Virus record (IMG/VR): IMGVR_UViG_3300033406_000366
Location: 1-35,792 of that record
Strand: one strand, 5' to 3'
Source of the DNA: a virus
Taxonomy: Duplodnaviria > Caudoviricetes
DNA: 35,792 nucleotides
The notes under the pieces were generated by a model. It worked only from the letters and a program-made list of their open reading frames with translations, was not told the origin of the DNA and searched no databases. This document shows positions 4,554-35,792 of the stretch, piece by piece. Position 1 is the first letter of the stretch, and each line of letters opens with the position of its first letter. The translations under genes and the position numbers were made by a program.

Positions 4554-5456
4554 ATGAAAACAAGCGATCAAATCAACGAATTGGCCGGCGCTTTGGCAAA
4601 GGCCCAGGGCGCAATGAACGCCGCCGTCAAGGACAGTAAAAACCCACACCTGGGGAACAAATACGCCGATCTTGCCAGCGTATGGGACGCCGCCCGCAAA
4701 CCGCTTTCTGACAACGGCCTGGCCGTTATTCAGTCGCCGGAAAACGTCGTCGTCAAAAGTCGGCAATATGTCGAGCGCAAACGATACGACAAAAACAAAG
4801 GATCCAGCTACACCACGACCGACGAGGTTATCGACGCGACGATCACTATTTTAACCAGGATCACCCACGCATCAGGCCAATGGATCGAAAACGAACTGGA
4901 AATGCCGATCCTGGAAATGGATCCGCAAAAGGTCGGCAGCGTTATCACCTACGGCCGCCGCTATGCGCTGGCTGCAATGGTCGGGATCACCCAGGACGAC
5001 GACGACGGCAACGCCGGCAGCAACGTCAACGGGCCGCGATCCAATCAGCAACAGCAGCAAAAACCACCGGCAGCGCAGCCGTCAAAACCGCCGGACAACA
5101 GCGGACAAAAACGGACAACAGCGGACACGAAACCGGCCGCACCGGCACCGGCAACGAAACCGGAAACGCCGCCGGCCGAAAACAACGGATATATCAACGC
5201 GATCCTTCAATCGGCAAAAGACCTGAACATGAGCGAACTAGATCTGAAATACGCGGTCAAAGAATTACTAGGATCATCGACCTTGAAGGGCCTGGACAAT
5301 ACGGCCTATAGAAAACTAATCGTCTTTTTGAATGGCCTGGCCGACGACGGGATCACCTTCGCCGACTGGAAGGCGCAGCGCCAAACAGACGACGACGCCC
5401 TGGCTGCCGAGATCGGGAAAAATATGCCGGACTTGCCGGACTTTCCGGTTGCATAG
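4554..5456 (+). CDS. ERF-family single-strand annealing protein
   Basis: ALAKAQ..KDSKNPH...YADLASV and DPQKVGSVITYGRRYALAAMVGI.QDDDDGN motifs. Confidence 0.92.
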   Translation: MKTSDQINELAGALAKAQGAMNAAVKDSKNPHLGNKYADLASVWDAARKPLSDNGLAVIQSPENVVVKSRQYVERKRYDKNKGSSYTTTDEVIDATITILTRITHASGQWIENELEMPILEMDPQKVGSVITYGRRYALAAMVGITQDDDDGNAGSNVNGPRSNQQQQQKPPAAQPSKPPDNSGQKRTTADTKPAAPAPATKPETPPAENNGYINAILQSAKDLNMSELDLKYAVKELLGSSTLKGLDNTAYRKLIVFLNGLADDGITFADWKAQRQTDDDALAAEIGKNMPDLPDFPVA

Positions 5457-5468
5457 GAGGGAAAGAAA

Positions 5469-5711
5469 ATGATCGTCAGAGTAATTGATCGGGCCGCAAT
5501 GGATCAAAGAGATGGCCTGTCTTACGGCGCCCTGATCTTTCGCACCGTGGAAATATCGGACACCTGCCCGAAATGCGGCGGGCCGCGCGGGATCCCTTAC
5601 CTGGCGCAATATTGCGAGGACGGCGACTGGTACCAGGTTCACAACTGGAACAATCCCTGCGGACACCCTGACAAATATCGGGACGTAATAAAGGAGGCGG
5701 AAAGCAAATGA
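5469..5711 (+). CDS. Hypothetical zinc-binding phage protein
   Basis: CPKC...CGH; AGGAGG RBS; overlaps the next gene by ATGA. Confidence 0.7.
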   Translation: MIVRVIDRAAMDQRDGLSYGALIFRTVEISDTCPKCGGPRGIPYLAQYCEDGDWYQVHNWNNPCGHPDKYRDVIKEAESK

Positions 5712-7477
5712 AAATCACACGGGTAAAAATGGCCGGCTTTAAACAATTCGCCGATCCGATCGAGATCAGTTTTCAAAACGGCGAAAATATCATCAGCGGC
5801 GACAACAACCAGGGCAAGACGACGATCGCGGAGGCGATCTGTTACGCGCTGACGGGCCGCGACTTATTCGGCGCCATCACCGTCGACCATTTAATGACGG
5901 CCGGCGGACGGTCGATGGAGGTCGAAGTCGCTTTCTGGACTGGTGAAGAAACTCATACAATCATCAGGTCCCGCGAGTACAACAAGAAAGGCGACACGGT
6001 CAATACGGTTATCCTGGACGGAGAAAAGGCCACCCAGACCAAGATTGACGCGATCGTCGGCGATTACCGTTATTTCCTGGCCTGTTGGAACCCGAATTAC
6101 ATTCATACCCTGGACGACGCGAAAGCATCCGATCTGCTGCGATCGTTGACCACGCCGCCGGCAAAAGACGTCATTCTGGCCGCGCTGGATCCGGCGACGG
6201 CCGAAACATTGGCCACTCTGTCCGATCTTCACCTGGCCGATCCGGCCGGTACCGCCAAAAAGCTGCGGGCCGAAATCAAGGCCGACGAGTCCAAGATCCT
6301 AAAACTGACTGGCCAGGTCGACGTATATAAGGCCGAGATCAAGCAAGAGATCCCCAACGAGGCGATCACCTACGACGACGCCGTCGCCGATCTGGAAAAA
6401 GAGATCGCGGCGGCAAGGTCCGGCCGGCCTGGACTGGATCAACTGCCAAAGCTGAAACAGCGACACGGGAAGCTATTAACCAATTACAACGCGATACGCA
6501 GCCAGATTGAACTGATCCCGCCAGAACCTGATCCGGAAACGTCAATCTGCCCGACCTGCAAGCAGCATCTAGACGAAATTGGTTTCGTTGCCGTGACAGT
6601 CGCCCACGCGGCAGACGCGAAACGTGTCCAAGTCCGTAACGAGCAGCGCGTCGAGCAAATCAACAAAATCGTCGCAGAGGCGAAGGACGTCGCCGGCCAG
6701 ATCCACGCGATCGAGGCGGCCGAGTGGTTTAATGACGGTACCGACGAACTGGCAAATCTAGTCGAAACGCTGGACGGATTGCGGTCCGAGAATGACGTCG
6801 CCAAGGCCCACAATCAAAGACGTGCCTTTATCCTGGCAAAAGTCGAGGACGCGAAAAAACAACTACAACAAACCCAGGAGACGATCGACACGGCCCGCAA
6901 GGCGATCCCTGGCAAGGAGAACGAAATCGCCGCCCTGGGCGCGTATGCCGAGAAAAAAGAAGAATTGACGATCGGCCGCCTGACGTCGCAGCTTGACCGG
7001 TTGTCTGTCCGCCTGTTCAAAGTAATAAAGGAAACCGGCGAACTAAAACCGTCGTTTGACCTGATCTATGACGGCCAAACCTATAAAACCATGAGCAATT
7101 CAAACCGGATCCGCGCCGGCCTGGAACTGGCGGCCGCGATCAACACGATCACCGGCGCCGAATATCCGACCTATATCGACAACGCGGAGGCGATCGGCGA
7201 CTTTATCAAACCGGCCGGCCAATACTTTCGGGCGATCGTCCAATCTGGCGATCTGGCGATCAATGGCTTTGCCGACGACGAGGACCAGCCGGACGAAAAA
7301 CCGGCCTTGACGCTGTTGCCGGAACCGGAGGAAAAACCCAAACGGCGCCGCGAAAGTCCGCCGCAATTCCTGGGCGAACCGGAAAGCCTGCCGACAATAG
7401 CGGCGCCGGCCAGCGGACCGGACGACGGAGAAAGCCTGTTGAATTACCACAAACGAATGACGGCGCGGATCCGCTAG
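5708..7477 (+). CDS. SbcC/Rad50-like coiled-coil ABC ATPase
   Basis: Walker A GDNNQGKTT, long coiled coil with central CPTC hook, MSNSN signature-like motif and YIDNAE Walker B. Confidence 0.85.
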   Translation: MKITRVKMAGFKQFADPIEISFQNGENIISGDNNQGKTTIAEAICYALTGRDLFGAITVDHLMTAGGRSMEVEVAFWTGEETHTIIRSREYNKKGDTVNTVILDGEKATQTKIDAIVGDYRYFLACWNPNYIHTLDDAKASDLLRSLTTPPAKDVILAALDPATAETLATLSDLHLADPAGTAKKLRAEIKADESKILKLTGQVDVYKAEIKQEIPNEAITYDDAVADLEKEIAAARSGRPGLDQLPKLKQRHGKLLTNYNAIRSQIELIPPEPDPETSICPTCKQHLDEIGFVAVTVAHAADAKRVQVRNEQRVEQINKIVAEAKDVAGQIHAIEAAEWFNDGTDELANLVETLDGLRSENDVAKAHNQRRAFILAKVEDAKKQLQQTQETIDTARKAIPGKENEIAALGAYAEKKEELTIGRLTSQLDRLSVRLFKVIKETGELKPSFDLIYDGQTYKTMSNSNRIRAGLELAAAINTITGAEYPTYIDNAEAIGDFIKPAGQYFRAIVQSGDLAINGFADDEDQPDEKPALTLLPEPEEKPKRRRESPPQFLGEPESLPTIAAPASGPDDGESLLNYHKRMTARIR

Positions 7478-7489: not shown

Positions 7490-8536
7490 ATGTACGCAAA
7501 AGTGGAATGTCAATTCTGGGCGGATCCTTTGGTCCGCAGCTTATCGGAGGACGCCAGGATCTTGTTGTTTTACTATATCACGACGCCGGCCAGGAACTTC
7601 ATCGGCCTGTACCACCTGCCCGAACCGCTGGCCCTTTATCACTTGCATTGGCAGCCGGTCCGGTACCGAAAGGCACAAAAGGAACTTTCCGAAAAATGCC
7701 GGATCCTGGTCGACTTCGACGCCGATCTGATCCTGGTCGTCAATCACTTTAAACACAACAAGCCGGAAAATCCGAACCAGGTCAAAGGGGCCGTTAAGGT
7801 CCTGAATGAACTTCCAGACACCAAGCTATTTATTACCCTGTACGATCTGGCGAAAACATACATCGAGCCAGAACCGGAACCGCTACTAAAAGCCTTGAAA
7901 AAGCGTATTGAAACCGTTTCGAAACCCTTTCTAAACCCTTTCGGAACGGGTAATCGGGGCAGCGGCCTGGACGATCAACCTGGTAAAAATGGGGAAAATG
8001 TGGATAACTCGCAAGAACCAGCGCCAAACCTGGATCTTGAAACCGTTTCGGAACCGTTTCGGAACCCTTTCGAAACCAATAACAATAGCAATAACAATAG
8101 CAATAACAATAGCAATAACAATAGCAATAATACTATCGTCGAAAAATCGACGGAGGGCGCGCCGAAAAAAAAGACGGTAACGAAAGCAGAGGCAATGGCA
8201 GCGATTGACGAATACAACGCAATTTTAACCGGATCGCTGCCGGCCGTGAAGTCGATCACCGAAAAGCGGATCGAGGCAATGAAAAGGATCTTGACCAGGT
8301 ACGACGCCGAAACCTGGAAGGCCGCCCTTTACGAAACGAAAAACAGCGCCTTTTTGACCGGCGGATCCTTCTCTTGTTCGTTCGACTGGATTGTCCAGGA
8401 AAAAAACCTGGTAAAAATCTTGGAGGGGAATTACAGGAATAAGACCGGACCAAGAAACACAACGCCGCCGCCGCGCGGGATCGCTGGCCTGGCCGAGATT
8501 ATCAACGGATCGGAGGAAGAAGAATGGCAGCATTAA
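7490..8536 (+). CDS. Phage replication initiator
   Basis: N-terminal FWADP...LSEDARILLFY wHTH-like region, internal DNA repeats and C-terminal FDWIV..NLVKILEGNY motif; lies upstream of a helicase-loader-like gene. Confidence 0.8.
   Translation: MYAKVECQFWADPLVRSLSEDARILLFYYITTPARNFIGLYHLPEPLALYHLHWQPVRYRKAQKELSEKCRILVDFDADLILVVNHFKHNKPENPNQVKGAVKVLNELPDTKLFITLYDLAKTYIEPEPEPLLKALKKRIETVSKPFLNPFGTGNRGSGLDDQPGKNGENVDNSQEPAPNLDLETVSEPFRNPFETNNNSNNNSNNNSNNNSNNTIVEKSTEGAPKKKTVTKAEAMAAIDEYNAILTGSLPAVKSITEKRIEAMKRILTRYDAETWKAALYETKNSAFLTGGSFSCSFDWIVQEKNLVKILEGNYRNKTGPRNTTPPPRGIAGLAEIINGSEEEEWQH
7910..8131. repeat. Putative replication origin: two clusters of 11-bp iterons, a DnaA box and 4x12-bp AT-rich repeats
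   Basis: GAAACCGTTTC-like units at 7910, 7921, 7932 and at 8039, 8050, 8061; TGTGGATAA at 7999-8007; (AATAACAATAGC)x4 at 8078-8125. Confidence 0.8.
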
Positions 8537-12572: not shown

Positions 12573-12799
12573 ATAAAATGTTAGACAGGGTTTTTTGGAC
12601 CATTGCGGCGATAATGTGGACCATAGTATTTTTCGGCTCAACGGTGAATGATCTGGCGGCAGCAAGGACCGAGATCGCTGCGCTGCGGGCCGAGGTCAAG
12701 CAATTACGGACTGACCTGGACCAAAGAACGCACCCGCGCACCATCCAGGACCGGACGATCAACTGGATCCTGCGGACGGGAGAATTTGAGGGGGATTGA
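12569..12799 (+). CDS. Small membrane-anchored coiled-coil protein
   Basis: N-terminal hydrophobic helix followed by a heptad pattern. Confidence 0.65.
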   Translation: MNKMLDRVFWTIAAIMWTIVFFGSTVNDLAAARTEIAALRAEVKQLRTDLDQRTHPRTIQDRTINWILRTGEFEGD

Positions 12800-12800
12800 A

Positions 12801-12971
12801 ATGGATATCGACGAAAGAATTCAAGAGATCAGTGCGGTTGTTAATATAATTCACGATCTTTGTATAAAGTCGGACATTAGTTTATTCGCAAAAAACAACA
12901 AAGGGACGTTGCTTGTTTGTGTTAAAGATCATAACAATGGCAAAGAATACGGATTAAAAAAGGGGCGTTAA
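12801..12971 (+). CDS. Hypothetical protein
   Basis: GAGGGGG RBS then ATG 12801; AT-rich. Confidence 0.6.
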   Translation: MDIDERIQEISAVVNIIHDLCIKSDISLFAKNNKGTLLVCVKDHNNGKEYGLKKGR

Positions 12972-12973
12972 TT

Positions 12974-13240
12974 ATGAATAAAATACAAATAAACGCATCA
13001 AAAAACGTGTTTGATAGAAAAATACTGATTGACGGAAAACCCGTTTTCGCCAGCGCGGCGATCCTTCAACTTGACACAAGGGGACTTCCGACATTAGCGA
13101 TTAGTATTCCGATTGTAACTGAGTGCGAGGTTGAAGGAGAGGCGGAAATAAAAATCAACGCCGCACCTGTTAGCGACGAGATCGGCCGGAAGGTCTACGA
13201 GGCGTTAAAGGAAAGGTATGAAGGCGGGAAAGAAAAATGA
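12974..13240 (+). CDS. Hypothetical protein
   Basis: Tightly packed co-oriented ORF with RBS. Confidence 0.65.
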   Translation: MNKIQINASKNVFDRKILIDGKPVFASAAILQLDTRGLPTLAISIPIVTECEVEGEAEIKINAAPVSDEIGRKVYEALKERYEGGKEK

Positions 13241-13440
13241 TAACACCGGAAGAAAGATATTGTAACGATGTTCTTTTTCGTTCGTTGGTCGATTTTTTGA
13301 CGCAAACGCTTTTAAAAACGCATATAACTATATCTGACATAAGGGACGCTGCCGAACTGGCGGAATTTATAAGCAAAGCCACCAAGCCAATTGAAAATAA
13401 TATTTCGCCGCTGCAGCACAACACAGAAAAACAAGAATAG
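13237..13440 (+). CDS. Hypothetical protein
   Basis: ATGA overlap with the previous gene. Confidence 0.6.
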   Translation: MITPEERYCNDVLFRSLVDFLTQTLLKTHITISDIRDAAELAEFISKATKPIENNISPLQHNTEKQE

Positions 13441-13457
13441 AATATACACTAGGAAAG

Positions 13458-13530
13458 GCGGCAGGGAAATCCTGCGGGGATCGCGGATAATGGCGGACTT
13501 GTTTCTTGCCGATCGGGGCGGGGATAATAT
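13458..13530 (+). promoter_or_regulatory. Putative activator-dependent late promoter
   Basis: GCGG direct repeats at 13474, 13483 and 13493 (about one helical turn apart), then a weak TTGTTT-18-GATAAT. Confidence 0.4.
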
Positions 13531-13551
13531 TCGCGACTTTCCAAGTGAGAG

Positions 13552-13579
13552 AGGACCGGAGAGGCACCGGTCCTTTTTT
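13552..13579 (+). terminator. Intrinsic terminator
   Basis: AGGACCGG-AGAGGCA-CCGGTCCT-TTTTT. Confidence 0.85.
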
Positions 13580-13582
13580 ATT

Positions 13583-13654
13583 CGGCCGCGCTATGGAAAG
13601 CGCCGGGCGACGCACAAGCCAGGAACCCAGGATCGAAACCTGGGCGGCCGCCCA
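13583..13654 (+). ncRNA. tRNA-like element (degenerate tRNA or tRNA mimic)
   Basis: Perfect 7-bp acceptor CGGCCGC/GCGGCCG plus C plus CCA; T-arm CCAGG-ATCGAAA-CCTGG; short D-like hairpin GCT-ATGGAA-AGC; imperfect anticodon arm. Confidence 0.65.
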
Positions 13655-13674
13655 AAAGAAAGCGAGGCGATTTT

Positions 13675-13896
13675 GTGAGATTGGTACCGGTTATAACGTC
13701 AAAACCGTACAACTTGATGAAACAAATTAAGCGGAGAATTGAGAAAATCGGCCTGACTGATATAAAGTATCTAGCGACAGAAATAAACCTGGCAGACGGC
13801 ACGATTGCGACTGTTTGCGTGATAAGTGACCAAGGAGGCGCATATACGGCCTTCAACCAAAAGCCAGATATTATTTTTAAGATCGTTGACGATTAG
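13675..13896 (+). CDS. Hypothetical protein
   Basis: GAGG RBS, GTG start, directly upstream of terS. Confidence 0.55.
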   Translation: MRLVPVITSKPYNLMKQIKRRIEKIGLTDIKYLATEINLADGTIATVCVISDQGGAYTAFNQKPDIIFKIVDD

Positions 13897-13911
13897 AGAG
13901 GGGGAAACCGA

Positions 13912-14430
13912 ATGGCATTGAGCGACAAACAAGAAACTTTTTGCAGGGAATATTTGGTAGATTTAAACGGGACACAGGCAGCCATTCGGGCGGGATATTC
14001 GGCCAGGACGGCCAGAGAACAGGCGACGCGACTGTTGGCAAATGTTCACATACGCGCCCGCGTCGACGAAATGATGGCGGCCCGCAGCATGAGGACAGAA
14101 ATCACGGCCGACGTTGTTATCAGGGAACTGGCCAGGATCGCGCTAGTTGATCCGCTGGATATTATAGACGCTGACGACGCCACCGTCACCGACAGCGCAA
14201 CCAAGGACCAACGGGCAGCCATTCAGTCGATCAAGGTAAAAAAACGGCCCACAGATTACGGCGACGAGATCGAGCGCGAAGTAAAGCTGCACGACAAAGT
14301 CAAGGCCCTGGACCTGCTAGGGAAACACCTGGGAATGTTCACCGATAAAAAAGAAATCACCGGCCCAGGGGGCGCGCCGATCCCGCTGGCCATATCTGTC
14401 GAATATGTCAAACCTGATCCAACCGATTAA
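13912..14430 (+). CDS. terS: Terminase small subunit
   Basis: LSDKQETFCREYLVDLNGTQAAIRAGYS and DKVKALDLLGKHLGMF. Confidence 0.95.
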   Translation: MALSDKQETFCREYLVDLNGTQAAIRAGYSARTAREQATRLLANVHIRARVDEMMAARSMRTEITADVVIRELARIALVDPLDIIDADDATVTDSATKDQRAAIQSIKVKKRPTDYGDEIEREVKLHDKVKALDLLGKHLGMFTDKKEITGPGGAPIPLAISVEYVKPDPTD

Positions 14431-15673
14431 CGTCAAGCTGAATTACGTTTTCGCGCCGGCCAACGAAACGCGAAAGCGGTACCGAATGATGAAAGGATCG
14501 GCCGGATCCGGCAAGAGCCAAAATATCGCGACCGATTACATACTGAAACTTTCTAGCGCCTTGTATAAGGGCGCTAATTTATTGGTATTACGCAAGATCG
14601 AGGCATCCAATCGCGATAGCACTTACGCAGAACTAACCGGCGCAATCAATCGGATCTACGGCGATAAGGCGGACGTCGTCTGGAAGGCCAGTATAAACCC
14701 TATGCGGCTATACTGCCGGCAGAACGGATCCGAGATTATTTTCCGAGGCATGAACGACGCCAGGCAGCGCGAGAAAGTGAAGTCGATCAACTTCGCAAAA
14801 GGGAAATTGACTTGGATCTGGATGGAGGAGGCCAGCGAATTTGAGGCCGACGACCTGGAAATCCTGGACGACCGGCTGCGGGGCGAAATGCCGAATCCGA
14901 ATTTATACTATCAGATCACCGGATCATTCAATCCGATCAATGCGGAACATTGGCTAAAGCAGCGATTTTGGGACTACCAGGACGCGGACACGTTCACACA
15001 CCACAGCACCTACAAGGACAACGTCTTTTGTGATCCTGCGTTCCTGCGCCGCATGGATCGACGCCGGCGCTTGGATCCGGAGGGGTACCGCATTTATGGC
15101 CTGGGCGAGTGGGGAACAACCGGCGGCCTGATCCTGACGCGCTGGCAGCTAAAAGACTTCGATCGCAGCCCGCACCTGTTCGACAGCCGGATCCTGGCGC
15201 AAGACTTCGGCTTTAACCATGCAAACGCCTTATTGGAAATCGGCTTTAAGGATGGCGACCTGTACGTCCTGCGCGAATTGTATGTCCACGAAAAAGACAC
15301 GGCCGAGATCATCGACCTGGCCGAAGGCGGCGGATTTGATAAGTCACTGACCATGTTTTGCGATAGCGCCGAGCCGGACCGTATCGCTATGTGGCAAAAA
15401 GCCGGTTGGAACGCGCGGGCGGTAAAAAAAGAACCTGGCTGCGTCAAGGCCCAGATCGACTATTTAAAGCAGCGGGCCATTTATATCCATCCTGTTTGTG
15501 CCAACACGGCCAAAGAGGCGGGCGCCTGGCGCTGGAAAAAAGACCGGATCACAAACAAATACTTAGACGAACCGGTCGAGATCTTCGACGACGCTATGGC
15601 TGCGCTGCGGTATGGAATAGAAGAAGTGAGGAACCCAGAAGGCCGGCCCTGGTCCGGCTATATTGATTTTTAG
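14405..15673 (+). CDS. terL: Terminase large subunit (PBSX/SPP1-like)
   Basis: KGSAGSGKS Walker A, WMEEASE Walker B, SFNP, QDFGF, CDSAEP and DDAMAALRYG. Confidence 0.95.
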   Translation: MSNLIQPINVKLNYVFAPANETRKRYRMMKGSAGSGKSQNIATDYILKLSSALYKGANLLVLRKIEASNRDSTYAELTGAINRIYGDKADVVWKASINPMRLYCRQNGSEIIFRGMNDARQREKVKSINFAKGKLTWIWMEEASEFEADDLEILDDRLRGEMPNPNLYYQITGSFNPINAEHWLKQRFWDYQDADTFTHHSTYKDNVFCDPAFLRRMDRRRRLDPEGYRIYGLGEWGTTGGLILTRWQLKDFDRSPHLFDSRILAQDFGFNHANALLEIGFKDGDLYVLRELYVHEKDTAEIIDLAEGGGFDKSLTMFCDSAEPDRIAMWQKAGWNARAVKKEPGCVKAQIDYLKQRAIYIHPVCANTAKEAGAWRWKKDRITNKYLDEPVEIFDDAMAALRYGIEEVRNPEGRPWSGYIDF

Positions 15674-15683
15674 GAGGCGAACA

Positions 15684-24991: not shown

Positions 24992-27694
24992 TTGGCGAAT
25001 AACATTGATATTCTAATCAACGCCCACGATAACGCGACGGCAGCGATCAAGCGCGTCGGTTCCGCCTTTACTGACATTGCCCGCCAGGCGGCCGGCTTTA
25101 CCCTGGCAACGGCCGGAATGGCCGGTCTGTCCGCAATCGCCGAAAAGGCCGGCGCCGCGTTTATCGGCTATAATGCCAAGATGGAACAAACCCGCGTCAG
25201 CATGGAAACCATGCTTGGCAGCGCCGAGGCCGCACAGACCTTTATCGCGCAGATGGCCGACTTTGCCGAGAAAACGCCGTTCGAATTCAAAGACGTCAGC
25301 GACGCGGCAAAACGCTTTCTGGCGTTTGGCTTTGCGGCAAATGAAATCATTCCGACCTTGACGGCCGTCGGCAACGCAGCGGCCGGCCTGGGGATCGGCA
25401 AGGAGGGGATCGACCGCGTCACGTTGGCCCTGGGGCAAATGAGCATTAAGGCCAAGCTGTCCGGCGAGGAAGTCATGCAGCTAAACGAGGCCGGCATCGG
25501 CGCGCAGAAGTATCTTGCTGACGCCTTCAACCTGACCGGCGACGCCTTTAACGATCTATCAAAAACGGGGATTACCGGCGCCCAGGCCGTCAAGGCAATC
25601 GTCGACGGCATGGCCAACGATCCGAAATTCAAAGATATGATGGAAAAGCAAAGCAAGACGGCGATCGGCCTATGGTCAACCATGAAAGACCAGGCATCAA
25701 CGATCTTCGGCGCGCTTGGACAAACGGCCTTCGAAGGCATGAAGGGCGCAATGGAAAGCATCACAGGCGGCCTGTCTGACCTGGTGAAGAAGATCCGCGA
25801 GGGCGGCGTCGAAAAGGCGTTTCGTGAAATGGTACCGGAGGAATGGCAGGTCCGCATTGAAAAGATTTTCAACTATGTCGCGAGTTATTACGAGAGTTTT
25901 ATCCAGATCCTTTCCCAAGGATCCGAAGGCGGATCAAACGCCCTGGCGCTGTTGGGTACCGCGATCGACATTTTAATTCCCGTCTTTCAGGCGTTGGGCG
26001 AGGTTGCTTTATTTATTATCGACGTAATGGTCGGATCCTTTAATAATGCAATGGCCGTATGTCGGCAATTTGTCGACGATATAACGACCGGCTTTACGGA
26101 GTTATACGACAGCACAATCGGGATCTTTACGTCGCTAGGATCGGCCATGGAATGGATCTGGGACAATATCGGCGCGTCGATCGTCCAGAAGGTTAAAGAC
26201 TTTGTGTATGGGATCCTGGACGCCCTGGGACCGATTGGCCAGATCGTCAAAGGCGTCGGCGACGCGATCGAAAGCGCCTGGGGCAAAGCGTCGGCCGGTC
26301 CGCGCATCACAACCGGCGGCAGCGCGTTTTCAAGCTTTATCGGCGGCATGAAGGGCCAGGGCGGCGTCACACAGGCCGGCCTTGACGCCCTGGCGGGCCA
26401 TGCCGGATCGAAAATGAACCTGGAACCAGGCGACAGCGGCAGCGGATCCGGATCCGGCGATAAGTCCGAGCGGCGCCTGGAACGGTCCGAAGAAAAAATG
26501 CGGGATCTAGTCGCCGACCTGACGACCAAGATCGCCGAGGACACGCAGGACGCCCTCACGGCCAACCTGGCGAAGATGGCCGCCGAGGTCGAAAAATGGC
26601 AGGGCGATATTAACGAGGCGGCCGGCAACGGCGCCGACGTCACGGCCGCACAAAAGGCCCTTGACGATTACAAAAATGTTCATGAGGCCAAGATCCGCGA
26701 CGACATTAAAAAGACGCAGGACGCCCTGATCCGCGACACCCGCAGCATCAACGCCGACCTGGTCCAAGATTACCGGCAGGCAGCGGATCAAAAATATCAA
26801 ATTGCCGTCGAGGCCGCACAAGCGGAGGCCGTCGAAAAACGGAAGGCCGGCATGAGCGAGGCGGCCGTCAATGATTGGTTAACGGCCAAAACGGCCGAGG
26901 CCGCGCAGCAGCGCCGCGACGCCCTGGCGTCCGGACTGGAAACCGAATACACGGACGAGCTGCAGCACATTAATAATATCGCGGTCTTGGAGGGAAAAAA
27001 CACGGCCTGGATCGAGCAGCAGACGCGGATCGTCTTAGAGACCAAAATCAACGCCTTGAAGGCCGAACTGGCCGCTGCCGAAACCACAGCCGAACGCCGG
27101 AAGGCCATCGAAAAAGAAATCGCCGACGCAACCGGCCAAATCAACACCGCAAACCGCCATAGTCTTTCAACGGCCTGGAAAGAGGCGTCGAAGGACATTC
27201 AAAACACGCAAATGGATTATGCGACGCGCATCAAACAGTCATGGGACGAAATTTCAACGTCGATCCATGACAACCTATCCGATATTCTAAACGGAACGCA
27301 ATCGCTAGGCGACGGCATGAAGGCCATTTTTAGCGATATTAGCCAGAGTATCACGCAAATGTTTCTTGACATGGCGATCGAGCAGCTTGTCATGGCACCG
27401 CTGCGAAACTGGTTTTCTGGCGTTCTTAGACGCATCAGTGGCAATATTGGCGGACATAACGCCCTGGGCGGCCGCACTTTCGGCGGGACACCTTACGTCG
27501 TCGGTGAACACGGGCCGGAGATTTTTACGCCGGACCAAAACGGCCAGATCAGTCCAAACGGCGCCCTAGCAGCAGGAGGATCGCCAATTAATATGTATAT
27601 CACAACGCCGGACATCGGCAGTTTTAGGCGATCGCGGGGGCAGGTTTTATCCGAACTGAATTTAGCCATGCGCGGCGCGGGGAGGTTAATGTAA
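24992..27694 (+). CDS. Tape measure protein
   Basis: 900 aa, Ala/Gly-rich helical; FAEKTPFEF and ALGQM...KLSGEEVMQLNE tape-measure motifs; C-terminal VVGEHGPEIF. Confidence 0.92.
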   Translation: MANNIDILINAHDNATAAIKRVGSAFTDIARQAAGFTLATAGMAGLSAIAEKAGAAFIGYNAKMEQTRVSMETMLGSAEAAQTFIAQMADFAEKTPFEFKDVSDAAKRFLAFGFAANEIIPTLTAVGNAAAGLGIGKEGIDRVTLALGQMSIKAKLSGEEVMQLNEAGIGAQKYLADAFNLTGDAFNDLSKTGITGAQAVKAIVDGMANDPKFKDMMEKQSKTAIGLWSTMKDQASTIFGALGQTAFEGMKGAMESITGGLSDLVKKIREGGVEKAFREMVPEEWQVRIEKIFNYVASYYESFIQILSQGSEGGSNALALLGTAIDILIPVFQALGEVALFIIDVMVGSFNNAMAVCRQFVDDITTGFTELYDSTIGIFTSLGSAMEWIWDNIGASIVQKVKDFVYGILDALGPIGQIVKGVGDAIESAWGKASAGPRITTGGSAFSSFIGGMKGQGGVTQAGLDALAGHAGSKMNLEPGDSGSGSGSGDKSERRLERSEEKMRDLVADLTTKIAEDTQDALTANLAKMAAEVEKWQGDINEAAGNGADVTAAQKALDDYKNVHEAKIRDDIKKTQDALIRDTRSINADLVQDYRQAADQKYQIAVEAAQAEAVEKRKAGMSEAAVNDWLTAKTAEAAQQRRDALASGLETEYTDELQHINNIAVLEGKNTAWIEQQTRIVLETKINALKAELAAAETTAERRKAIEKEIADATGQINTANRHSLSTAWKEASKDIQNTQMDYATRIKQSWDEISTSIHDNLSDILNGTQSLGDGMKAIFSDISQSITQMFLDMAIEQLVMAPLRNWFSGVLRRISGNIGGHNALGGRTFGGTPYVVGEHGPEIFTPDQNGQISPNGALAAGGSPINMYITTPDIGSFRRSRGQVLSELNLAMRGAGRLM

Positions 27695-28302
27695 TGGCAG
27701 CAGCGTTTCACGAAGTCCTTTTCCCTGTCGATATATCCTACGGCGCCAGCGGCGGGCCGGAGTATTCGACCGACCTGGTCAAGACGGCCAGCGGCGGCGA
27801 AACTAGAAACCAAAATTGGGAATACCCGCTGCACAAGTACGACGTCGGCCACAATGTGAAAACGCGCGAACAGATTATGAAACTAAGCGCGTTTTTTCGC
27901 GGCCGCAAGGGCAAAGCGTTTGGTTTTCGGTTCAAGGATTGGATCGACTACGCAGCGACCGGCCAATATTTAGGCACCGGCGACGGCGCAACGGCAACCT
28001 ATCAACTGATAAAAAAATACACCGACGACGGCGGCTATTCGGAAACCAGGAAAATCACAAAGCCGGTCAACGGTACCGTGAAGGTTTATCTTGACGACGT
28101 ACTGCAGATAGCTGGTTATACGGTCGACTATGCGACGGGGATAGTCACGTTTGATGTTGCGCCAGCGGCCGGCGTTATTGTCACGGCAGACTTTGAGTTT
28201 GACGTCCCTTGCCGGTTCGACACGGACGGCATGACGGCCAGCATTGACAATTATAATGTGTTTTCCTGGGCGAGTATTCCGATCGTTGAAATTAAGGTTT
28301 AA
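27694..28302 (+). CDS. Distal tail protein, DUF2460/TIGR02217 family (RcGTA g12-like)
   Basis: FHEVLFP.DISYGASGGPEYST, FRFKDWID, RKITKPV.GTV and FEFDVPCRFDTD. Confidence 0.9.
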   Translation: MAAAFHEVLFPVDISYGASGGPEYSTDLVKTASGGETRNQNWEYPLHKYDVGHNVKTREQIMKLSAFFRGRKGKAFGFRFKDWIDYAATGQYLGTGDGATATYQLIKKYTDDGGYSETRKITKPVNGTVKVYLDDVLQIAGYTVDYATGIVTFDVAPAAGVIVTADFEFDVPCRFDTDGMTASIDNYNVFSWASIPIVEIKV

Positions 28303-28316
28303 GGAGGGGAAGAATT

Positions 28317-29750
28317 TTGTCTTATCTTTGGTATAGCGCGGGGCTGCGAAAAGATTTTGATATTTATGGTAATTTCGTTGGACAAAACACGGGACACCGA
28401 ACCGGTTTTTATGTTGGTGGAAATGTGGGTGACAATGCGTATAAAGTTTTACCCGAAACAGGAACAGAATTCTGGGCGTCGTCATACCGTGGCCTGAATA
28501 TCTCGTCAAATGGCGACGCGCTTCAGCTACGCGGCACAGACAACACAACAGTATTGGCATACATAACCGTTGTTAGCGGTTATGTGAAAGCATATGCTTC
28601 TGTTGGCGGAACATTAACTCTATTAGCAACCGGAACAACTGTTTTACAATCATCATCGTTTCACCAAATCGAATATCATTATAAACGGCATTCGACCGAT
28701 GGTATTTTCGAAGTATGGGTTGACGGTATTTTAGAAATATCTTTTTCGGGAAACACGGGCAGCGAAGCAACTGTGATAGGATGTTTTGCACATTCACAAA
28801 TCGCTAATGGCAACACGGCGAACGTTGGTTCGTCCGAATTTATTGTCACAAATAAAGGTCGAATCGGGAAAAAGCGAATGCAAATCCTTTATTTATCCGG
28901 ATCGGGAGACACAAACACAACAGACGGATTTATGGACGTGATCGGCAATGATACAACAACAACATCAACTACCGTCAAAACAGGAACCTATATTCTCCCG
29001 TCCGCGATAAAAGCGTCCGGAACATTAAAAACAGTCGCGTTTAATCTATACGCAGCAGATACAGTCAAAATCGGAGTTTTTACTAAAAATGCGTCTGCCG
29101 TAAAATTCACACCGGACGCAACACGACAGGCGTCTGTCGCTTGTTTAGCTGGCGCCGTGACGCTGAACGCCGGCACAGATTTTACAGAATGGGCCGTTGC
29201 CGCTGGCGAATACATCGGGATTTATACGACTGCTGGAAAATTAATTTACACGGCAACGTCGAATAATGGCGACGATCTGAATTTAGGTTCGGCCTATTAT
29301 ATTTCTGGCGACGCCTTCGCGCTAGGAACAGAACAAAGTTATTCCACCGACGGCAGCGGTAATTTTATTCGCGCCTTTGCTCAATATTTAACAGCAACAA
29401 ACCTAATGTATTTATACAACGGAAATTCTAATGTAATCACAGAAAGGCCGTGGCTTGAAAGCAAACGGTATGTGTCTATGAGCGCGAACGGACAAGAATT
29501 TTTAAATAGCTGCACCGACTTGACCGATGGCGAATGCACCGCTGTCAATGCGCTAAAAATAACCTTGCGCGGCGAGGCTGGAACGACTATTACTAACGGG
29601 CAAACTTGTATTAAGGCAGGCGGATCGGTAACGTATAGTGACACAATTGCAATGCCAACTGTAATAAACCAGCGGCACACAATTTTCGACGGTACTTGGT
29701 CGAAAGCGCAAATAAACGCCCTGCAGATCGGGTTTAAGGCTTTAACATAA
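28317..29750 (+). CDS. Putative receptor-binding/lectin-like tail protein (lower-GC insert)
   Basis: Thr/Gly/Ser-rich beta protein; FHQIEYHY....DGIFEVWVDG ConA/LamG-like segment; TTG start after AAGGAGG. Confidence 0.65.
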   Translation: MSYLWYSAGLRKDFDIYGNFVGQNTGHRTGFYVGGNVGDNAYKVLPETGTEFWASSYRGLNISSNGDALQLRGTDNTTVLAYITVVSGYVKAYASVGGTLTLLATGTTVLQSSSFHQIEYHYKRHSTDGIFEVWVDGILEISFSGNTGSEATVIGCFAHSQIANGNTANVGSSEFIVTNKGRIGKKRMQILYLSGSGDTNTTDGFMDVIGNDTTTTSTTVKTGTYILPSAIKASGTLKTVAFNLYAADTVKIGVFTKNASAVKFTPDATRQASVACLAGAVTLNAGTDFTEWAVAAGEYIGIYTTAGKLIYTATSNNGDDLNLGSAYYISGDAFALGTEQSYSTDGSGNFIRAFAQYLTATNLMYLYNGNSNVITERPWLESKRYVSMSANGQEFLNSCTDLTDGECTAVNALKITLRGEAGTTITNGQTCIKAGGSVTYSDTIAMPTVINQRHTIFDGTWSKAQINALQIGFKALT

Positions 29751-30823
29751 TGGGCGCTGAAAAATATTCTTATAATCCATTCATAACATCACTATATGAA
29801 AAAAACTTGGAACGGGCGCCGTCAGCATTTGTTACGGCACTATACGGAACGGACATATTAAAGTCCGAAGGCGCGGCAATCGAATTTATTACGCCAATAT
29901 TTGACGTAGTCGATCAGTCGAGCGTACAAACGGCGTTTGTTACTGCACTTTTTACCGAACACCCTTTCCCTTGGCTGTGCGATCCCGTGACGGCGATTGC
30001 CTGGAATTACCGCCTGGAACTGACTGACGGGACGGTTTTCGGCTTTACGAGCCACGACCAGGATCTTGTCATCGACGGCCTGACCTATGAGGCAAACGCC
30101 GGTTTTTCGCCGACGGCCGTCGAAACGAGCAACAATCTAGCAACCGACAACATGGAACTAGAAGGCGTCATGGATAGCACGCGCATTGATCCGGCCGACA
30201 TTATGGCCGGACGGTTCGATCATGCTAAAATCACCGTTTTCCTTTGCAACTGGAAAAACCTATCGGATCCCATGCTGACGGTCCGCAAGGGATTTATCGG
30301 CGAAATCAAATACGGACCGAACCGGTACCAAACTGAGGCGCTAGGATTGACCACGGCGCTGCAACAAGACGCCGGCGAACTGTATCAAAAAATCTGCCGC
30401 GCCGATCTGGGGGATAGTAAATGTCAGGTCAATATGACGGCGCTAACCGTTTCCGGTACCGTCGCGAACGTCTATTCTGACGCCTATTTTTCGACGGATC
30501 TGGCGCAAGCGGACGCCTTTTTCGACTATGGCAATCTGACGTTTACTAGCGGCAATAACAACGGCCGCAAATGCGAGGTCAAGGCGTATGCTGACGGCGA
30601 AGTCAAACTGTTTATCAAAGCGCCGCAATCGGTCCAGATCGGCGACACGTTCACGATTGCGGCCGGCTGCGATCGCAATTTTTCGACCTGCCGCGACCGG
30701 TTCGCGAACCAGGTCAATTTTCGCGGCGAGCCGTCGGTCCCTGGCAACGATTACGCCAGCGGCTACGCGGCCAAAGGGACGGTAAACGTCGTCAGCAGCG
30801 GCACCAGCCCGAAACTAGGATAA
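29750..30823 (+). CDS. Baseplate hub, DUF2163/BR0599 family (RcGTA g13-like), with N-terminal extension
   Basis: DGTVFGFTSHDQDL, CRADLGDSKC and AGCDRNFSTCRDRFAN.VNFRGEP with four conserved Cys. Confidence 0.9.
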   Translation: MGAEKYSYNPFITSLYEKNLERAPSAFVTALYGTDILKSEGAAIEFITPIFDVVDQSSVQTAFVTALFTEHPFPWLCDPVTAIAWNYRLELTDGTVFGFTSHDQDLVIDGLTYEANAGFSPTAVETSNNLATDNMELEGVMDSTRIDPADIMAGRFDHAKITVFLCNWKNLSDPMLTVRKGFIGEIKYGPNRYQTEALGLTTALQQDAGELYQKICRADLGDSKCQVNMTALTVSGTVANVYSDAYFSTDLAQADAFFDYGNLTFTSGNNNGRKCEVKAYADGEVKLFIKAPQSVQIGDTFTIAAGCDRNFSTCRDRFANQVNFRGEPSVPGNDYASGYAAKGTVNVVSSGTSPKLG

Positions 30824-30836
30824 AGGAGGCCTATCT

Positions 30837-31271
30837 ATGACAATCAAACGCGACACGATCGTCGCGATCGCACGGTCCTGGATCGGGACGAAGTGGCAGC
30901 ACCAGGCCAGTCTGAAAGGCGTCGCGACCGATTGCGTCGGCCTGGCGCGCGGGGTATACGCCGAGGCAACCGGCCAGGAGATCGTCGGAACCTGGGACTA
31001 TCCGGCGACCTGGCACCTGTTCAAAAGTGACGAGCGCATGATCGCGGAACTAAAAAACTACGCGACCGAGATCGACAAGGCGGACGCGCTGCCTGGGGAT
31101 CTGTTGATTTTCGGCTTTGGCAAAGGACCGGCGCACCATATCGGCATACTGGCGACGCCGGAAACCTTCGTTCACGCCTGGGCCGACGTCGGCCAAGTCG
31201 CCGAAACGCGCCTGGACGCCTTTTGGACGAAGAACCTGCGGACGGCCTTCCGGCTGCCGGAGGTCGACTAA
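30837..31271 (+). CDS. NlpC/P60 tail peptidase (RcGTA g14-like)
   Basis: ARSWIGTKWQHQAS.KGVATDCVGL.RGV, HIGI and FVHA. Confidence 0.92.
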   Translation: MTIKRDTIVAIARSWIGTKWQHQASLKGVATDCVGLARGVYAEATGQEIVGTWDYPATWHLFKSDERMIAELKNYATEIDKADALPGDLLIFGFGKGPAHHIGILATPETFVHAWADVGQVAETRLDAFWTKNLRTAFRLPEVD

Positions 31272-33553
31272 TGGCGACGCTGGCCGTTTCAATGTATCTG
31301 GCGGCAAATCCTATGTCATATCTGGCAATGGGGTTAATGTATGCCGGCGCCAGTTATATCGACGCGAAACTGTTCCCAGGCCCGAACGTCGACAGCGGCA
31401 AATTAAGCGATCTAAACATTCAAGTATCAACCTACGGCAATCCAATTTCCCGCGCTTACGGTACCATTCAGACGGCGGGGAATATTGTCTGGGGAACCAA
31501 TTTTGTCGAACATAAGAAGAAATCCGGCGGCAAGGGCGGCGGAGGCGGGACGGTTACAAGCTATACCTATTCCGTCAGTTTTGCCGTGATGATCTGCAAG
31601 GGGCCGATCAGCGGGATCGGCCGGATCTGGGCCGACGGGAAATTATTTGCCGATCTGACCGGACAAACTTTTGCCGACGGAACGATTACTGGCGAATACG
31701 AAGGCAACGGCGGCGGGACCTTTACCGTTTATCAGGGTACCGAAACGCAATTACCGGACGCCTTCATGGAGGGAATCGAGGGCGCTGGCAACGTGCCGGC
31801 CTATCGACCGTATGCATATGTGGTTTTTAAGGATCTGTACGTCACCGACTTCGGGCAGCGGATCCCGACGTTCACCTTTGAAATTATTTCACCGGTCAGC
31901 GCGGTCGACGCGATCGTCCGCGAGATCTGCACCGAGGCTGGCCTGGCGGAAAGCGATTTTGACGTCACGGATTTAAGCGGAAGCGCAATCACCGGCTATT
32001 TAACGGATGGCGGCAAAACCCACCGCGCGAAAATCGAACCGCTGCAAAGCGTTATTGTATTCGATGGCGTCGAGAGAAACGGTAAATTAACTTTTTTGCG
32101 ACGTAAAAATAATCTGTTGTCTGTAATGGTCTACGCATTAGACGAAAGTGAATTATCCGCCTATGAAAATGACAAGGGCGAACAGGAGGCGTTCGCGGCC
32201 ACCAGGACGCCCGAACAGGAATTGCCGGCGCGTGTCGTCTATGCGTACCTGTCGAAAGATCGTGAATATCAGACTAATGCCATGGGCGCCAACCGGCTGA
32301 ACACGACAAGCAAGAATTCCAAAAAGGTCGACCTGCCCGTCGTTTTGACCGACAGCGAAGGAAAAACCCTGGCCGAAACGGCGCTATATGCCGCCTGGAA
32401 CGCGCGGACAAGCTACGAACTGAAACTGGCGACGAAGTACGCCTGCCTGTTCCCTGGCGACCTGGTCAAGCTGCCGATCCCGAACGCGAGCGAAATTTTC
32501 CTGTATGCGAATAAAAATTCATACGGCAAACCAGGGATCACAACGATCACGGCCGAAACTGTCGACGTCGAAACTTACGACCGGAAGATCCGGACCGCCG
32601 ACGCCAGCCATGTGCAAACCTTTCCGGATCCACCGACGGCAATCACGGCGCATTTTCTGGACCTGTTCTACAAATACGGTGACACCGACGAAACACCGCT
32701 ATATGTCACGACAACGGCGGCGCGGTTCATCGACGCGAATATTTTCCGCAGCCACGACGACGGCCTGACCTGGGAATATGTCGCAACGAGCAACGCCAAC
32801 GCAGAGGCCGGCGCAGCCGCGACGGTCCTGGCAGCCGGTCCGGTCGACTTCTTCGACGAGGCCAACACGGTTGACGTTGTACTACTCCAAGGGACTTTGT
32901 CGAGCCGGTCCGAGGCGGATATCCTGAACGGATATAATGCCGCCCTGATCGGCGACGAAATTCTGCAATTCAAAACGGCGACGCTAATCGCCGCCAATAC
33001 TTACCGCCTTTCCGGTCTGCTGCGCGGGCGCAATGGCACCGAAAGCCTGGTCGGATCCCACGCGATCGGCGACCGGTTTATTTTGCTATCGAGCGAAAAC
33101 CTGGTCAAGCTGCCGACGTCGACGGCCGACTGGTTCCATCCGGTCCAGTACCGGATCGGGCCGTCAGTCTGTGCGATCACTAGCGACTATTATTCAACCG
33201 TCAGTTATACGAGCGACGGCACCGTCGCGAAACCGTTCGCTCCCTGCCACCTGACCGGATCACGCGACGGCAGCGGCAACCTGACAATCAACTGGATCCG
33301 CCGTAGCCGCAAGGATTTTTCCTGGCAACCGTATGTTGACGCGGCTTTGAGTGAAGGATCTGAACGGTACGAAATCGACGTCTATAACGGCGCGGCCGTC
33401 GTCCGGACGATCAGCGCGACGGCATCAACGGCCGTCTATACGGCGGCGCAACAGACGGCCGACTTTGGCAGCGCCCAGGCAAGCGTCAACGTAAAAATTT
33501 ATCAATTATCCGATATTCGCGGCCGAGGCTGGCCGGCAGAGGGGGCAATATAA
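31271..33553 (+). CDS. Central tail tip protein (RcGTA g15/megatron-like, shorter)
   Basis: STYG.PI.RAYGT...AGNIVW, YSVSFAV..C.GPI.GIGRIWADGK, PAYR..AYVVF, LSGLLRG.NGTE and WIRRSR. Confidence 0.88.
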   Translation: MATLAVSMYLAANPMSYLAMGLMYAGASYIDAKLFPGPNVDSGKLSDLNIQVSTYGNPISRAYGTIQTAGNIVWGTNFVEHKKKSGGKGGGGGTVTSYTYSVSFAVMICKGPISGIGRIWADGKLFADLTGQTFADGTITGEYEGNGGGTFTVYQGTETQLPDAFMEGIEGAGNVPAYRPYAYVVFKDLYVTDFGQRIPTFTFEIISPVSAVDAIVREICTEAGLAESDFDVTDLSGSAITGYLTDGGKTHRAKIEPLQSVIVFDGVERNGKLTFLRRKNNLLSVMVYALDESELSAYENDKGEQEAFAATRTPEQELPARVVYAYLSKDREYQTNAMGANRLNTTSKNSKKVDLPVVLTDSEGKTLAETALYAAWNARTSYELKLATKYACLFPGDLVKLPIPNASEIFLYANKNSYGKPGITTITAETVDVETYDRKIRTADASHVQTFPDPPTAITAHFLDLFYKYGDTDETPLYVTTTAARFIDANIFRSHDDGLTWEYVATSNANAEAGAAATVLAAGPVDFFDEANTVDVVLLQGTLSSRSEADILNGYNAALIGDEILQFKTATLIAANTYRLSGLLRGRNGTESLVGSHAIGDRFILLSSENLVKLPTSTADWFHPVQYRIGPSVCAITSDYYSTVSYTSDGTVAKPFAPCHLTGSRDGSGNLTINWIRRSRKDFSWQPYVDAALSEGSERYEIDVYNGAAVVRTISATASTAVYTAAQQTADFGSAQASVNVKIYQLSDIRGRGWPAEGAI

Positions 33554-34095
33554 TGGCAGATACGCCGAGACTGATTTTTCCGTATTTATCAACCAACCAG
33601 GCGCAAAAGGAAACCACCCACAACCAGGCATTAAACAAACTGGACGCCATGGTCCAGACGGCCGTCGAAAGCATGACCTTGACCACGCCGCCGACCGGCG
33701 TCGAAGGCAATTTGTATATCGTAGGCACCGGCGCGACGGGCGCCTGGGCCAGTAAAGACAAATACCTGGCGCAATATATCGGCGGGGCCTGGGCCTTTTA
33801 TACGCCGTTCGAAGGTCTACGGATCTACGACAAGGCCACGACGACCGGCATGGTCTACAAATCGGCTGTCTGGGTACAAGAGGACACGGCCCGCGCGAAG
33901 ATCGGATTTTTCGGATCCACGCCGGCGACGAAAACGACCGTCACCATGACCAATACCGACGGCGCGATCGGCGGCCTGACCATCAGCGCGACCTACACAC
34001 AGGCCGAGATCGTCGCGCTGCGTGACGGTACCGAAACCCTGGCCGACGACGTCCGCGCGATCAAGACGGCCCTGTCGTCCTACGGGATCATTTAA
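33553..34095 (+). CDS. DUF2793-domain short tail fibre-like protein
   Basis: TPRL..PYL...QAQKE.THNQAL..LD and YIVG.GATGAWA. Confidence 0.85.
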   Translation: MADTPRLIFPYLSTNQAQKETTHNQALNKLDAMVQTAVESMTLTTPPTGVEGNLYIVGTGATGAWASKDKYLAQYIGGAWAFYTPFEGLRIYDKATTTGMVYKSAVWVQEDTARAKIGFFGSTPATKTTVTMTNTDGAIGGLTISATYTQAEIVALRDGTETLADDVRAIKTALSSYGII

Positions 34096-34582: not shown

Positions 34583-35108
34583 ACAGGCCCGCGATCGGAT
34601 CGCCGAACTGGCGGCCGGCTGCGATCGGCCGGTCCGGATCTTCTTCCATTGGACGGCCGGCCACTATCGGCAATACTTCGACGATTATCATTTTAACATT
34701 GACCAGGACGGGGCGATCGTCGCCACGACCGGCGACCTGGCCGAAGTCAAAGCGCACACCTGGCGGCGCAACACCGGCGCGATCGGCGTCGGCCTTTGTT
34801 GCGCCTACCAGGCCAGATCCGTCGACGACCTGGGGCCAGAGCCGCCAACGGCGCAGCAAGTCGACGCAGCGGCCCAGGCTGCGGCCGTCCTTTGCATGGT
34901 CTGGGATCTACCGGTCGACGGATATCACGTTTTGACACATTCGGAGGCCGCCGACCTGGACGGTTACGGCCCGAAATCGACAAGCTGCGAACGATGGGAC
35001 CTGTACGTTATCGCGGCCGGCGATCCGCCGGACAGCGGCGGGGATCTGCTGCGGGCGGCGATCATGGAACATATCAGCAGCGGAAAGTTAAACTGGTTGT
35101 TTAACTAG
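34542..35108 (+). CDS. Endolysin, N-acetylmuramoyl-L-alanine amidase (Amidase_2-like), catalytic domain only
   Basis: HWTAG, YHFNID.DG, AHTWRRNTGAIGV and VLTHSE; AAGGAGG RBS before ATG 34542. Confidence 0.9.
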   Translation: MQIVNLAEVKRAAEQARDRIAELAAGCDRPVRIFFHWTAGHYRQYFDDYHFNIDQDGAIVATTGDLAEVKAHTWRRNTGAIGVGLCCAYQARSVDDLGPEPPTAQQVDAAAQAAAVLCMVWDLPVDGYHVLTHSEAADLDGYGPKSTSCERWDLYVIAAGDPPDSGGDLLRAAIMEHISSGKLNWLFN

Positions 35109-35195
35109 ACCGCTAAAACGTCACCAGGCGGTCAGAATGGCATCAAATTCGCGAGAAGCGGCCGCCTGGTACAAATAGAGAAAGGGGCAAACGAA

Positions 35196-35792
35196 ATGGA
35201 TCAAAACAAAACGCTGCGCGTCGGCCTGATCGCGGCGCTTATTCTTTTTCTGATCGGCTTTGCAGCCGGCGCGTTTTTCTGGGACCGATACGAGGCCGCC
35301 GGCCAGCGGTCCGCCCTGGTCGACGCGCTGAATAAGGCGCCGATCATAACGACGGTACAGGGCGCGACGGAAACGAAAACCGAGATCGCCTATGTCCCGA
35401 AGGAAATCATCAAGTACATTGACGCCAGCGGCCAGGAAGTCGCCGCGCCGGAAAAGACGGATCTGGACGTCCGGATCGCAAAACCGGACTTTATTGTCAA
35501 CGTCAACGGCCAGCAGCAAACATTCGCCAGGGCCGACAATGAAAACTATTTATTCGATAAAAACAAGATCCTTTTCGACCAGTCCAGCAAAATCATTATC
35601 ACGGTCGACGATAGCGCAATGATCGCCGCCCTGGCGAAAGCGCAGCAGAAACACTTTTCGGCCGGCGTCGATCGGATCGGCAGCAGCACGACGGCCGGCG
35701 TCGGTTATTCGCCAAACAATACGATCGACTATAAAATTCATAAAGAAATAGCCGGCGACAAAATCGGCGCCGGCCTTTGGATCCGTTTCTAA
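35196..35792 (+). CDS. Lysis-cassette membrane protein with N-terminal TM helix and C-terminal outer-membrane-type beta strands (candidate spanin analogue)
   Basis: Hydrophobic residues ~9-29, no Cys; C-terminus HFSAGV/TAGVGYS/IDYKIH/IGAGLWIRF ending in Phe. The CDS is well supported; the function is inferred. Confidence 0.6.
   Translation: MDQNKTLRVGLIAALILFLIGFAAGAFFWDRYEAAGQRSALVDALNKAPIITTVQGATETKTEIAYVPKEIIKYIDASGQEVAAPEKTDLDVRIAKPDFIVNVNGQQQTFARADNENYLFDKNKILFDQSSKIIITVDDSAMIAALAKAQQKHFSAGVDRIGSSTTAGVGYSPNNTIDYKIHKEIAGDKIGAGLWIRF

Follow-up and report, generated by a model that had tools for sequence, protein, structure and literature searches.

Near-complete loss of the trinucleotide CTC from one DNA strand of a temperate phage, with a strand-marking host defence as its probable cause

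The window analysed here, the whole 35,792 nucleotides of IMG/VR virus record IMGVR_UViG_3300033406_000366 (Duplodnaviria; Caudoviricetes), is a temperate tailed phage, present as a prophage, from one strand of which about 95% of the CTC trinucleotides are gone while most copies are kept on the other. On the plus strand of positions 4554-35792, which carries genes for early functions, replication, head, tail and lysis, 18 CTC are left against 298 GAG, with a first-order Markov expectation of 317 for CTC. (Numbers joined by a slash are observed over expected counts throughout.) An earlier note on this DNA had put the number at about 20, with a single CTC near 26555 against some 30 GAG in the tape measure gene, and the counts bear this out (one, at 26555, and 33 GAG).

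For the core open reading frames (ORFs) the nulls were 300 shuffles preserving protein and codons, a third-base model, and the codon usage of 14 host ORFs. The 14 CTC observed compare with 148 (z -14.8), 369 and 248 expected, respectively, and shuffling, a check proposed in the earlier note, does not reproduce the counts. GAG, at 270 versus 375, 568 and 321, has dropped much less than CTC, by 16-52% according to which null is used, with 84% kept under host codon usage. Avoidance had been said to hold in all reading frames, and it does, off-frame CTC standing at 7 versus 36 and 4 versus 109 expected in the codon shuffles. In frame, 3 of the 764 core Leu codons are CTC; however, the claim that Leu favours CTA, TTA and CTT was mistaken, the main codon being CTG (370), followed by TTG (104), CTA (103), TTA (98) and CTT (86). 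The longest stretch free of CTC on the plus strand (12640-19937, 7.3 kb) takes in terminase, portal and MuF, and the second (22017-26554, 4.5 kb) neck, tail tube and tape measure. Four of the 18 surviving copies are held by a tail-region gene of 44% GC (28317-29750, plus strand) that is possibly a recent arrival.

The loss is even with respect to neighbouring letters. Sorted by the preceding base it reads ACTC 5/72, CCTC 3/130, TCTC 4/60 and GCTC 2/106, and with longer 3′ context CTCA 4/93, CTCGA 0/40 and CTCAA 2/27; a test over the 16 flanks gives G=17.1, p=0.31, with 14 events and hence low power. Losses of GTG, GAG, CAC and CCC are flank-dependent (p<=2e-7), and since that of GTG depends on flank whereas that of CTC is even, GTG has the look of several ordinary sites taken together, and CTC that of one short word. 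There was no signal of surviving CTC being paired locally with GAG.

Different base changes have removed the word in the different frames. Among 127 four-fold codons that precede TCN none has C as its last base (A 64, G 57, T 6), Ser after a C-ending codon is AGY 118 times versus TCN 4 times, and NCN codons before C end in T in 7 of 396 cases versus 206 of 2151 elsewhere, lost CTC being replaced mainly by A or G and not by T. Because each frame needs its own base change and T is not favoured, deamination of C to T is excluded, and the involvement of all frames, the even flanks and the differing changes together argue for selection on the word CTC itself. That strand-biased mutation or host composition generated the pattern is hardly credible. 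The plus strand is indeed A-rich and T-poor (27% versus 18%), and several relatives have a mild CTC deficit (observed over expected, O/E, 0.37-0.6), but the replacements are not those of deamination and host flanks use both CTC (48/82, 45/67, 73/105) and GGTG (43/44) normally. The same depletion in host genes, a possibility raised in the earlier note, is absent, CTC accounting for 59 of 582 host Leu codons.

The serine integrase gene (1-1548, minus strand) is the one reversed gene that carries the plus-strand polarity. GAG serves for 3 of its 37 Glu codons versus 195 of 584 in the core (p=0.0008), and CTC for 4 of its 30 Leu codons versus 3 of 764 (p=5e-5). The earlier note's approximate 2 in 35 was thus right as to scarcity of GAG and slightly off in the count. 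In the sense direction, with the stretch at 1-78, the host transfer-messenger RNA (tmRNA) 3′ end on the plus strand, left out of the strand test, the gene has GAG 4/18, CAC 2/8, GTG 15/17 and CTC 4/11; on the plus strand it has nine CTC, five of them at 18-81, in or beside the tmRNA end, where copies are host-constrained. Integrase polarity follows the DNA strand and not the mRNA, in a single gene whose sense CTC is also low, and the flip with gene orientation that the earlier note wanted looked for does not occur there. Its broader statement that the bias appears to follow the DNA strand agrees with the integrase; the three other minus-strand genes (the low-GC immunity genes, 35-40% GC) lack the purge, with 12 sense GAG versus 13 expected. 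An RNA-level agent, whether a CUC-cutting nuclease or a codon or tRNA effect, that shaped the lytic mRNAs would fit with every strongly purged gene being on the plus strand, with the low sense CTC of the integrase and with the three unpurged reversed genes. It is nevertheless quite improbable given that the integrase uses CTC codons and avoids GAG codons, the reverse of the core, and, as all three frames are affected, a codon effect is not the answer. Shine-Dalgarno avoidance was considered as well and rejected, GAGG being kept (131/150).

The purge is specific to the phage lineage. Among the 146 of 160 fetched phage loci that are at least 5 kb long, CTC O/E has a median of 0.89 and a minimum of 0.37, versus 0.06 for the window, and it is at least 0.69 in another 22 loci, of which 21 have the tmRNA end in common and one is a tail relative. 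Nucleotide alignments to eight of the nine relatives tried, not all of them independent, show CTC kept in 0 of 71 cases and GAG in 38 of 125, with a background of 29.5%. The nearest relative, L008, has a milder form (7 of 203 Leu codons are CTC), so the trait may be a tendency of the lineage carried to an extreme. That phages with a similar tail passed it on was rejected, seven annotated genomes having CTC O/E of 0.69-0.83 (PA73, KL1 and RcTitan being outside the set).

As to what imposed the selection, the restriction of the purge to one strand excludes an orientation-blind reader of double-stranded DNA. A host defence that marks one strand and is sensitive to the orientation of its sites is the probable agent, a class that comprises both the three-letter reading favoured here and a union of longer Type III or IIG sites. 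Precedents for the ingredients exist. Marking by Type III and ISP enzymes affects one strand, and they require sites on opposite strands; systems of this sort, with MANTIS (described below) as a graded form, distinguish self from foreign through inverted sites. For type I bacteriophage exclusion (BREX) restriction has been proposed to depend on inverted unmodified sites (PMC11842806, also for the Type III and ISP enzymes); MmeI-family enzymes are reported to mark one adenine (PMC2731913). The earlier note's suggestion of asymmetric sites or a strand-specific defence survives as the best class of explanation, with several polar words matching Type III sites, though CTC itself behaves as a bare three-letter word.

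One member of the strand-specific kind would be a DarT-like enzyme that attacks CTC in single-stranded DNA on the lagging-strand template, which would be the plus strand if one-way replication runs with the genes. Such an enzyme would yield graded, strand-bound loss with no need for zero reverse sites, and DarT of enteropathogenic Escherichia coli is reported to read TTT/TCT on single-stranded DNA, with the lagging-strand template as proposed substrate (PMC7003065). However, the characterised DarT motifs show no selective loss (TTTC 120/120; TCT 177/260 versus AGA 343/486), and CTC polarity is identical on both sides of the likely origin, a set of 11-bp and 12-bp direct repeats (the 12-bp ones in tandem) that look like iterons at 7886-8136, inside the replication initiator gene. 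Without a polarity switch there, the single-strand model needs one-way replication. A literature search for a CTC-reading enzyme of this type found none, and the explanation is unlikely.

The absence of selective loss of DarT motifs and the match of the avoided word to the known phosphorothioate consensus NCTC (GCTC is also lost) lead us to infer an orientation-sensitive reader of three letters, with BREX type 4 as candidate. Our best reading, held tentatively and at somewhat less than even chance, is that a host defence marks one strand and reads CTC as three letters, perhaps a BREX type 4 system acting at NCTC. By keeping nearly all GAG/CTC copies pointing one way along its DNA, the phage would escape a defence that attacks unmarked DNA mainly where CTC copies face opposite ways. 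The selective agent would be a system like BREX type 4, and its restriction would be graded as well as orientation-sensitive, such that cutting reverse copies to about 5% would pay though some remain. Longer, flank-dependent words would be put down to conventional enzymes of Type III/IIG, Type I and Type II. Three-letter phosphorothioate recognition is reported at CCA (PMC9646914) and NCTC (PMC12914056), with a family overview in PMC12839542. In Bacteroides salyersiae the genes brxPCZL of BREX type 4 are reported to place phosphorothioate on one strand at NCTC, and a brx cluster is listed for a Negativicute, Selenomonas infelix (both PMC12914056).

Several points weigh against this assignment. 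The 10 kb of host flank covered contain no visible defence gene, and in the available tables of PMC12914056 BREX type 4 is labelled for one row among the 20 of Negativicutes and for none of the 8 that are Sporomusaceae-like. The accessible text of that paper reports modification by BREX type 4, with no phage avoidance, phage restriction or orientation rule found there, and the B. salyersiae sites it gives are ACTC, CCTC and TCTC, whereas GCTC is equally empty in the phage. The effector of the related Ssp system reportedly reads the modified host site and not the unmodified phage site (PMC9646914). One-strand depletion by MANTIS, a BREX-related hemimethylating defence of Pseudomonas, is described as not seen in temperate phages in the portion available of bioRxiv 10.64898/2026.09.23.753747. 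Within the phage, the evenness across flanks rests on just those 14 events, surviving CTC are not located in GAG-poor surroundings, and the strand test is one gene with low sense CTC next to three reversed genes that show nothing.

The main competitor, possible though somewhat doubtful, has many Type III, IIG or ISP enzymes (one-adenine methylation, 4-6 bp sites, GAG core) driving co-orientation, their overlap mimicking a three-letter purge. As in Type III escape, an asymmetric word is lost on one strand and kept on the other. Motifs were taken from the methylome table of Blow 2016 (PMC4752239), covering all 84 Type III rows (of 133 IIG rows 28 were seen, and none tested); after merging duplicates, setting 8 N4-methylcytosine motifs apart and dropping 3 rows, 61 distinct adenine-modified Type III motifs remained, one with unknown modification. 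GAG is the commonest trimer among the 61 (14 versus 7.7 +/- 2.2 when letters are shuffled), no other of 104 sequences scores above the window for Type III motif polarity, and individual motifs are strongly polar relative to their reverse: ccgAg 43/58 versus 0/33, gcAcc 32/34 versus 0/18, gAggc 65/52 versus 1/29, gcAtc 22/30 versus 1/20 and ggAg 69/201 versus 3/91. GCACC, CCGAG and the likewise strongly polar GAGATC have the 4-6 bp, the flank specificity and the absence of reverse copies expected of Type III sites, heavy restriction pressure is visible in the genome, and one-strand Type III depletion is reported in temperate phages (bioRxiv 10.64898/2026.09.23.753747). However, the polarity signal is gone when the 14 motifs with GAG are taken out (47 motifs, z=-0.3), which makes the motif test largely circular, and once GAG and CACC motifs are removed it gives no independent support. 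The 13 GAG motifs tested account for 54% of the CTC sites within reach (625 of 1148), and flanks outside them, such as CTCGA and CTCAA, are as empty; TGAG is unlisted, yet CTCA is nearly gone. Independent enzymes need not polarise the same way. None of the 84 Type III rows has a site as short as CTC, and where strict Type III logic has flank-specific sites of 4-6 bp with no reverse copies, the loss here is even over 16 flanks and 18 reverse copies remain, which sit badly with it.

Other words are lost from one strand. On the plus strand there are 9 GGTG versus 113 CACC, 93 GTG versus 331 CAC, and 32 GATG versus 60 CATC. The earlier note's observation of about 10 GGTG with common CACC is upheld, and under the host codon usage null GGTG (8/91; CACC 110/95) is one-stranded. 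Its motif set of GAG, CACC and CATC holds for the polar pairs GAG/CTC and CACC/GGTG; GATG is rarer than CATC, as it said, but with both strands low (31/195 and 59/102) it is not a one-strand word, polarity being clear in the sub-word GATGC (1/20 versus 22/30 for GCATC). Further polar words are AGTTC 0/24, TCGTG 4/29, AGTTG 1/17, GGTCGC 0/7 and GATTTC 0/6, for all of which the complement containing A is retained, and a few weaker ones are polar the other way (CATAG 4/26, AGATA 8/33). Both strands are depleted of Type II-like words, namely CCCGG 0/43, CCGGG 1/57 (CCSGG 1/100) and GACCC 0/51, and likewise GGAGC 0/54, GAAGC 3/58 and CCGCGG 0/27. The plus strand also has 3 CCCC versus 79 GGGG, CCC and GGG both being low in a flank-dependent manner.

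Bipartite Type I-like sites, avoidance of which the earlier note had missed, are lost in both orientations, mostly with A-to-T spacing 8. A..T at that spacing is 0.84 of expected (GAC 57/125, CAC 28/56, GAG 28/49), and CGA-N7-TC stands at 8/34 and 8/33 in its two orientations, with log10 p of -12.8 among 30,216 tests. The avoided sites include CGA-N7-TC, CGA-N6-GT and GAC-N5-GT at spacing 8 and GCA-N8-TG at spacing 9. This avoidance is real, and one could imagine Type I enzymes sharing a GAG half-site, with the T-half (CTC) removed from the A-rich strand and the bipartite sites thereby removed. As the origin of the CTC purge it is very improbable. Sites that a single silent change would turn into CTC number 1154, and 513 of them lack an A at -7 to -9, yet there are just 9 such CTC, and 9 of the 18 surviving CTC do have an upstream partner A. 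A count-only model of nine genes (neutral CTC 124 and GAG 145; observed 6 and 136) gave 14-84 CTC, the value of 14 being reached only with GAG down at 48. The CTC asymmetry is beyond what Type I avoidance can produce, and as sole cause this avoidance is disfavoured.

Escape by strand bias is already known; its three-letter form, in a temperate phage with Type I avoidance as well, differs from what the Rusinov 2018 survey describes, and no paper on a one-strand CTC purge was found in the literature, coverage of which was incomplete. Phage T7 keeps all 36 of its six-base EcoP15I sites in one orientation (bioRxiv 10.64898/2026.09.23.753747). As there, an asymmetric word is kept one way along the phage genome, and several polar words here are published Type III sites, but the present word has three bases, its ratio is 298:18, its loss is even across flanks, the phage is temperate and the enzyme is only a candidate. 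MANTIS is likewise reported to have a graded inverted-site preference and to be associated with one-strand depletion in phages (same source); it is, however, methylation-based and the depletion described is in virulent phages. BREX type 4 of B. salyersiae shares the core word, the marking of one strand and a loose 5′ base (PMC12914056), and differs in that GCTC, lost here, is not among its sites and in being only a candidate for the host of this phage. The Rusinov 2018 survey (PMC6286503) is similar in the both-strand loss of Type II-like words (here CCSGG 1/100, GACCC 0/77, GAAGC 5/82 and CCGCGG 0/27). According to its available text, avoidance of the Type I, IIG or strand-asymmetric kind did not turn up systematically and elimination is weaker in temperate phages, whereas the present temperate phage shows both Type I and strand-asymmetric avoidance, which that large survey did not detect systematically.

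The matter addressed is how one-strand-marking BREX and phosphorothioate defences tell self from foreign DNA. A general proposition, put forward more tentatively than the reading of this one genome, is that bacteria deploy an orientation-sensitive defence reading three bases (CTC/GAG), probably phosphorothioate BREX type 4, and that phages either delete the word from both strands or align it on one. If so, the genome would be a natural readout of self versus foreign recognition by such systems, and strand-polar phage trimers (CTC here, CTT in locus L110, CCA in locus L034) would map defence specificities. In L110 (6.7 kb) CTT is at 9/72 versus AAG 36/110, and in L034 (13.5 kb) CCA is at 28/134 versus TGG 126/215, with CTC 32/87. 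CCA and GAAG/CTTC are published phosphorothioate motifs (PMC12914056). Locus L151 (16.5 kb) has 11 GGTG versus 87 CACC, A..T at spacing 7-8 at about 0.8, and normal CTC, and in L185 (5.2 kb) A..T at spacing 8 is at 0.60.

With regard to genome layout, the minus-strand phage genes (integrase, ImmA-like protease, repressor) span 1-3147, with a low-GC immunity block of an ORF of unknown type, the protease and the repressor at 1632-3147. The plus strand then carries antirepressor, ERF, SbcC-like ATPase, replication initiator, SSB, RusA, terminase and P22-type capsid, and a gene transfer agent (GTA)-like tail, holin and amidase. The tmRNA 3′ end at 1-78 (Rfam 58.5 bits) is the likely attachment site, and the integrase reading frame continues antisense through it as far as the stop codon of the gene. 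A second exact copy of this end was not found in the window, which suggests that the right attachment site is located beyond the window. A cause of the purge encoded by the phage itself was rejected, as Pfam/PHROGs scans of 50 ORFs and PADLOC on 20 revealed neither a methyltransferase nor a defence nuclease, many ORFs being without family.

Metagenome contig L095 contains the opening 10 kb of the window, with 100% identity, together with 10 kb of host DNA, which identifies the window as a prophage. Host proteins on the flank are labelled Bacillota, and the best named matches of one host gene are Sporomusa (62-65%) and Desulfosporosinus (60%); judged from these resemblances the host is likely a Sporomusaceae-like Negativicute. 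Megablast against phages gave no match to the window, the best matches in capsid scans were just 31-32%, and scans with the DUF2460 and SbcC-like proteins gave no close relative. The GTA-like tail module at 27694-34095 (plus strand; DUF2460, Gp84/BR0599, NlpC/P60, Rcc01698, DUF2793) has database relatives that infect mostly Proteobacteria, and here it is in a Bacillota prophage. The MuF-type head protein (17229-19322, plus strand) carries a C-terminal HEFGH extension resembling a zinc peptidase, with weak, below-cutoff Pfam matches to ATLF and Peptidase_M90, its look-alikes in the Atlas being other MuF extensions.

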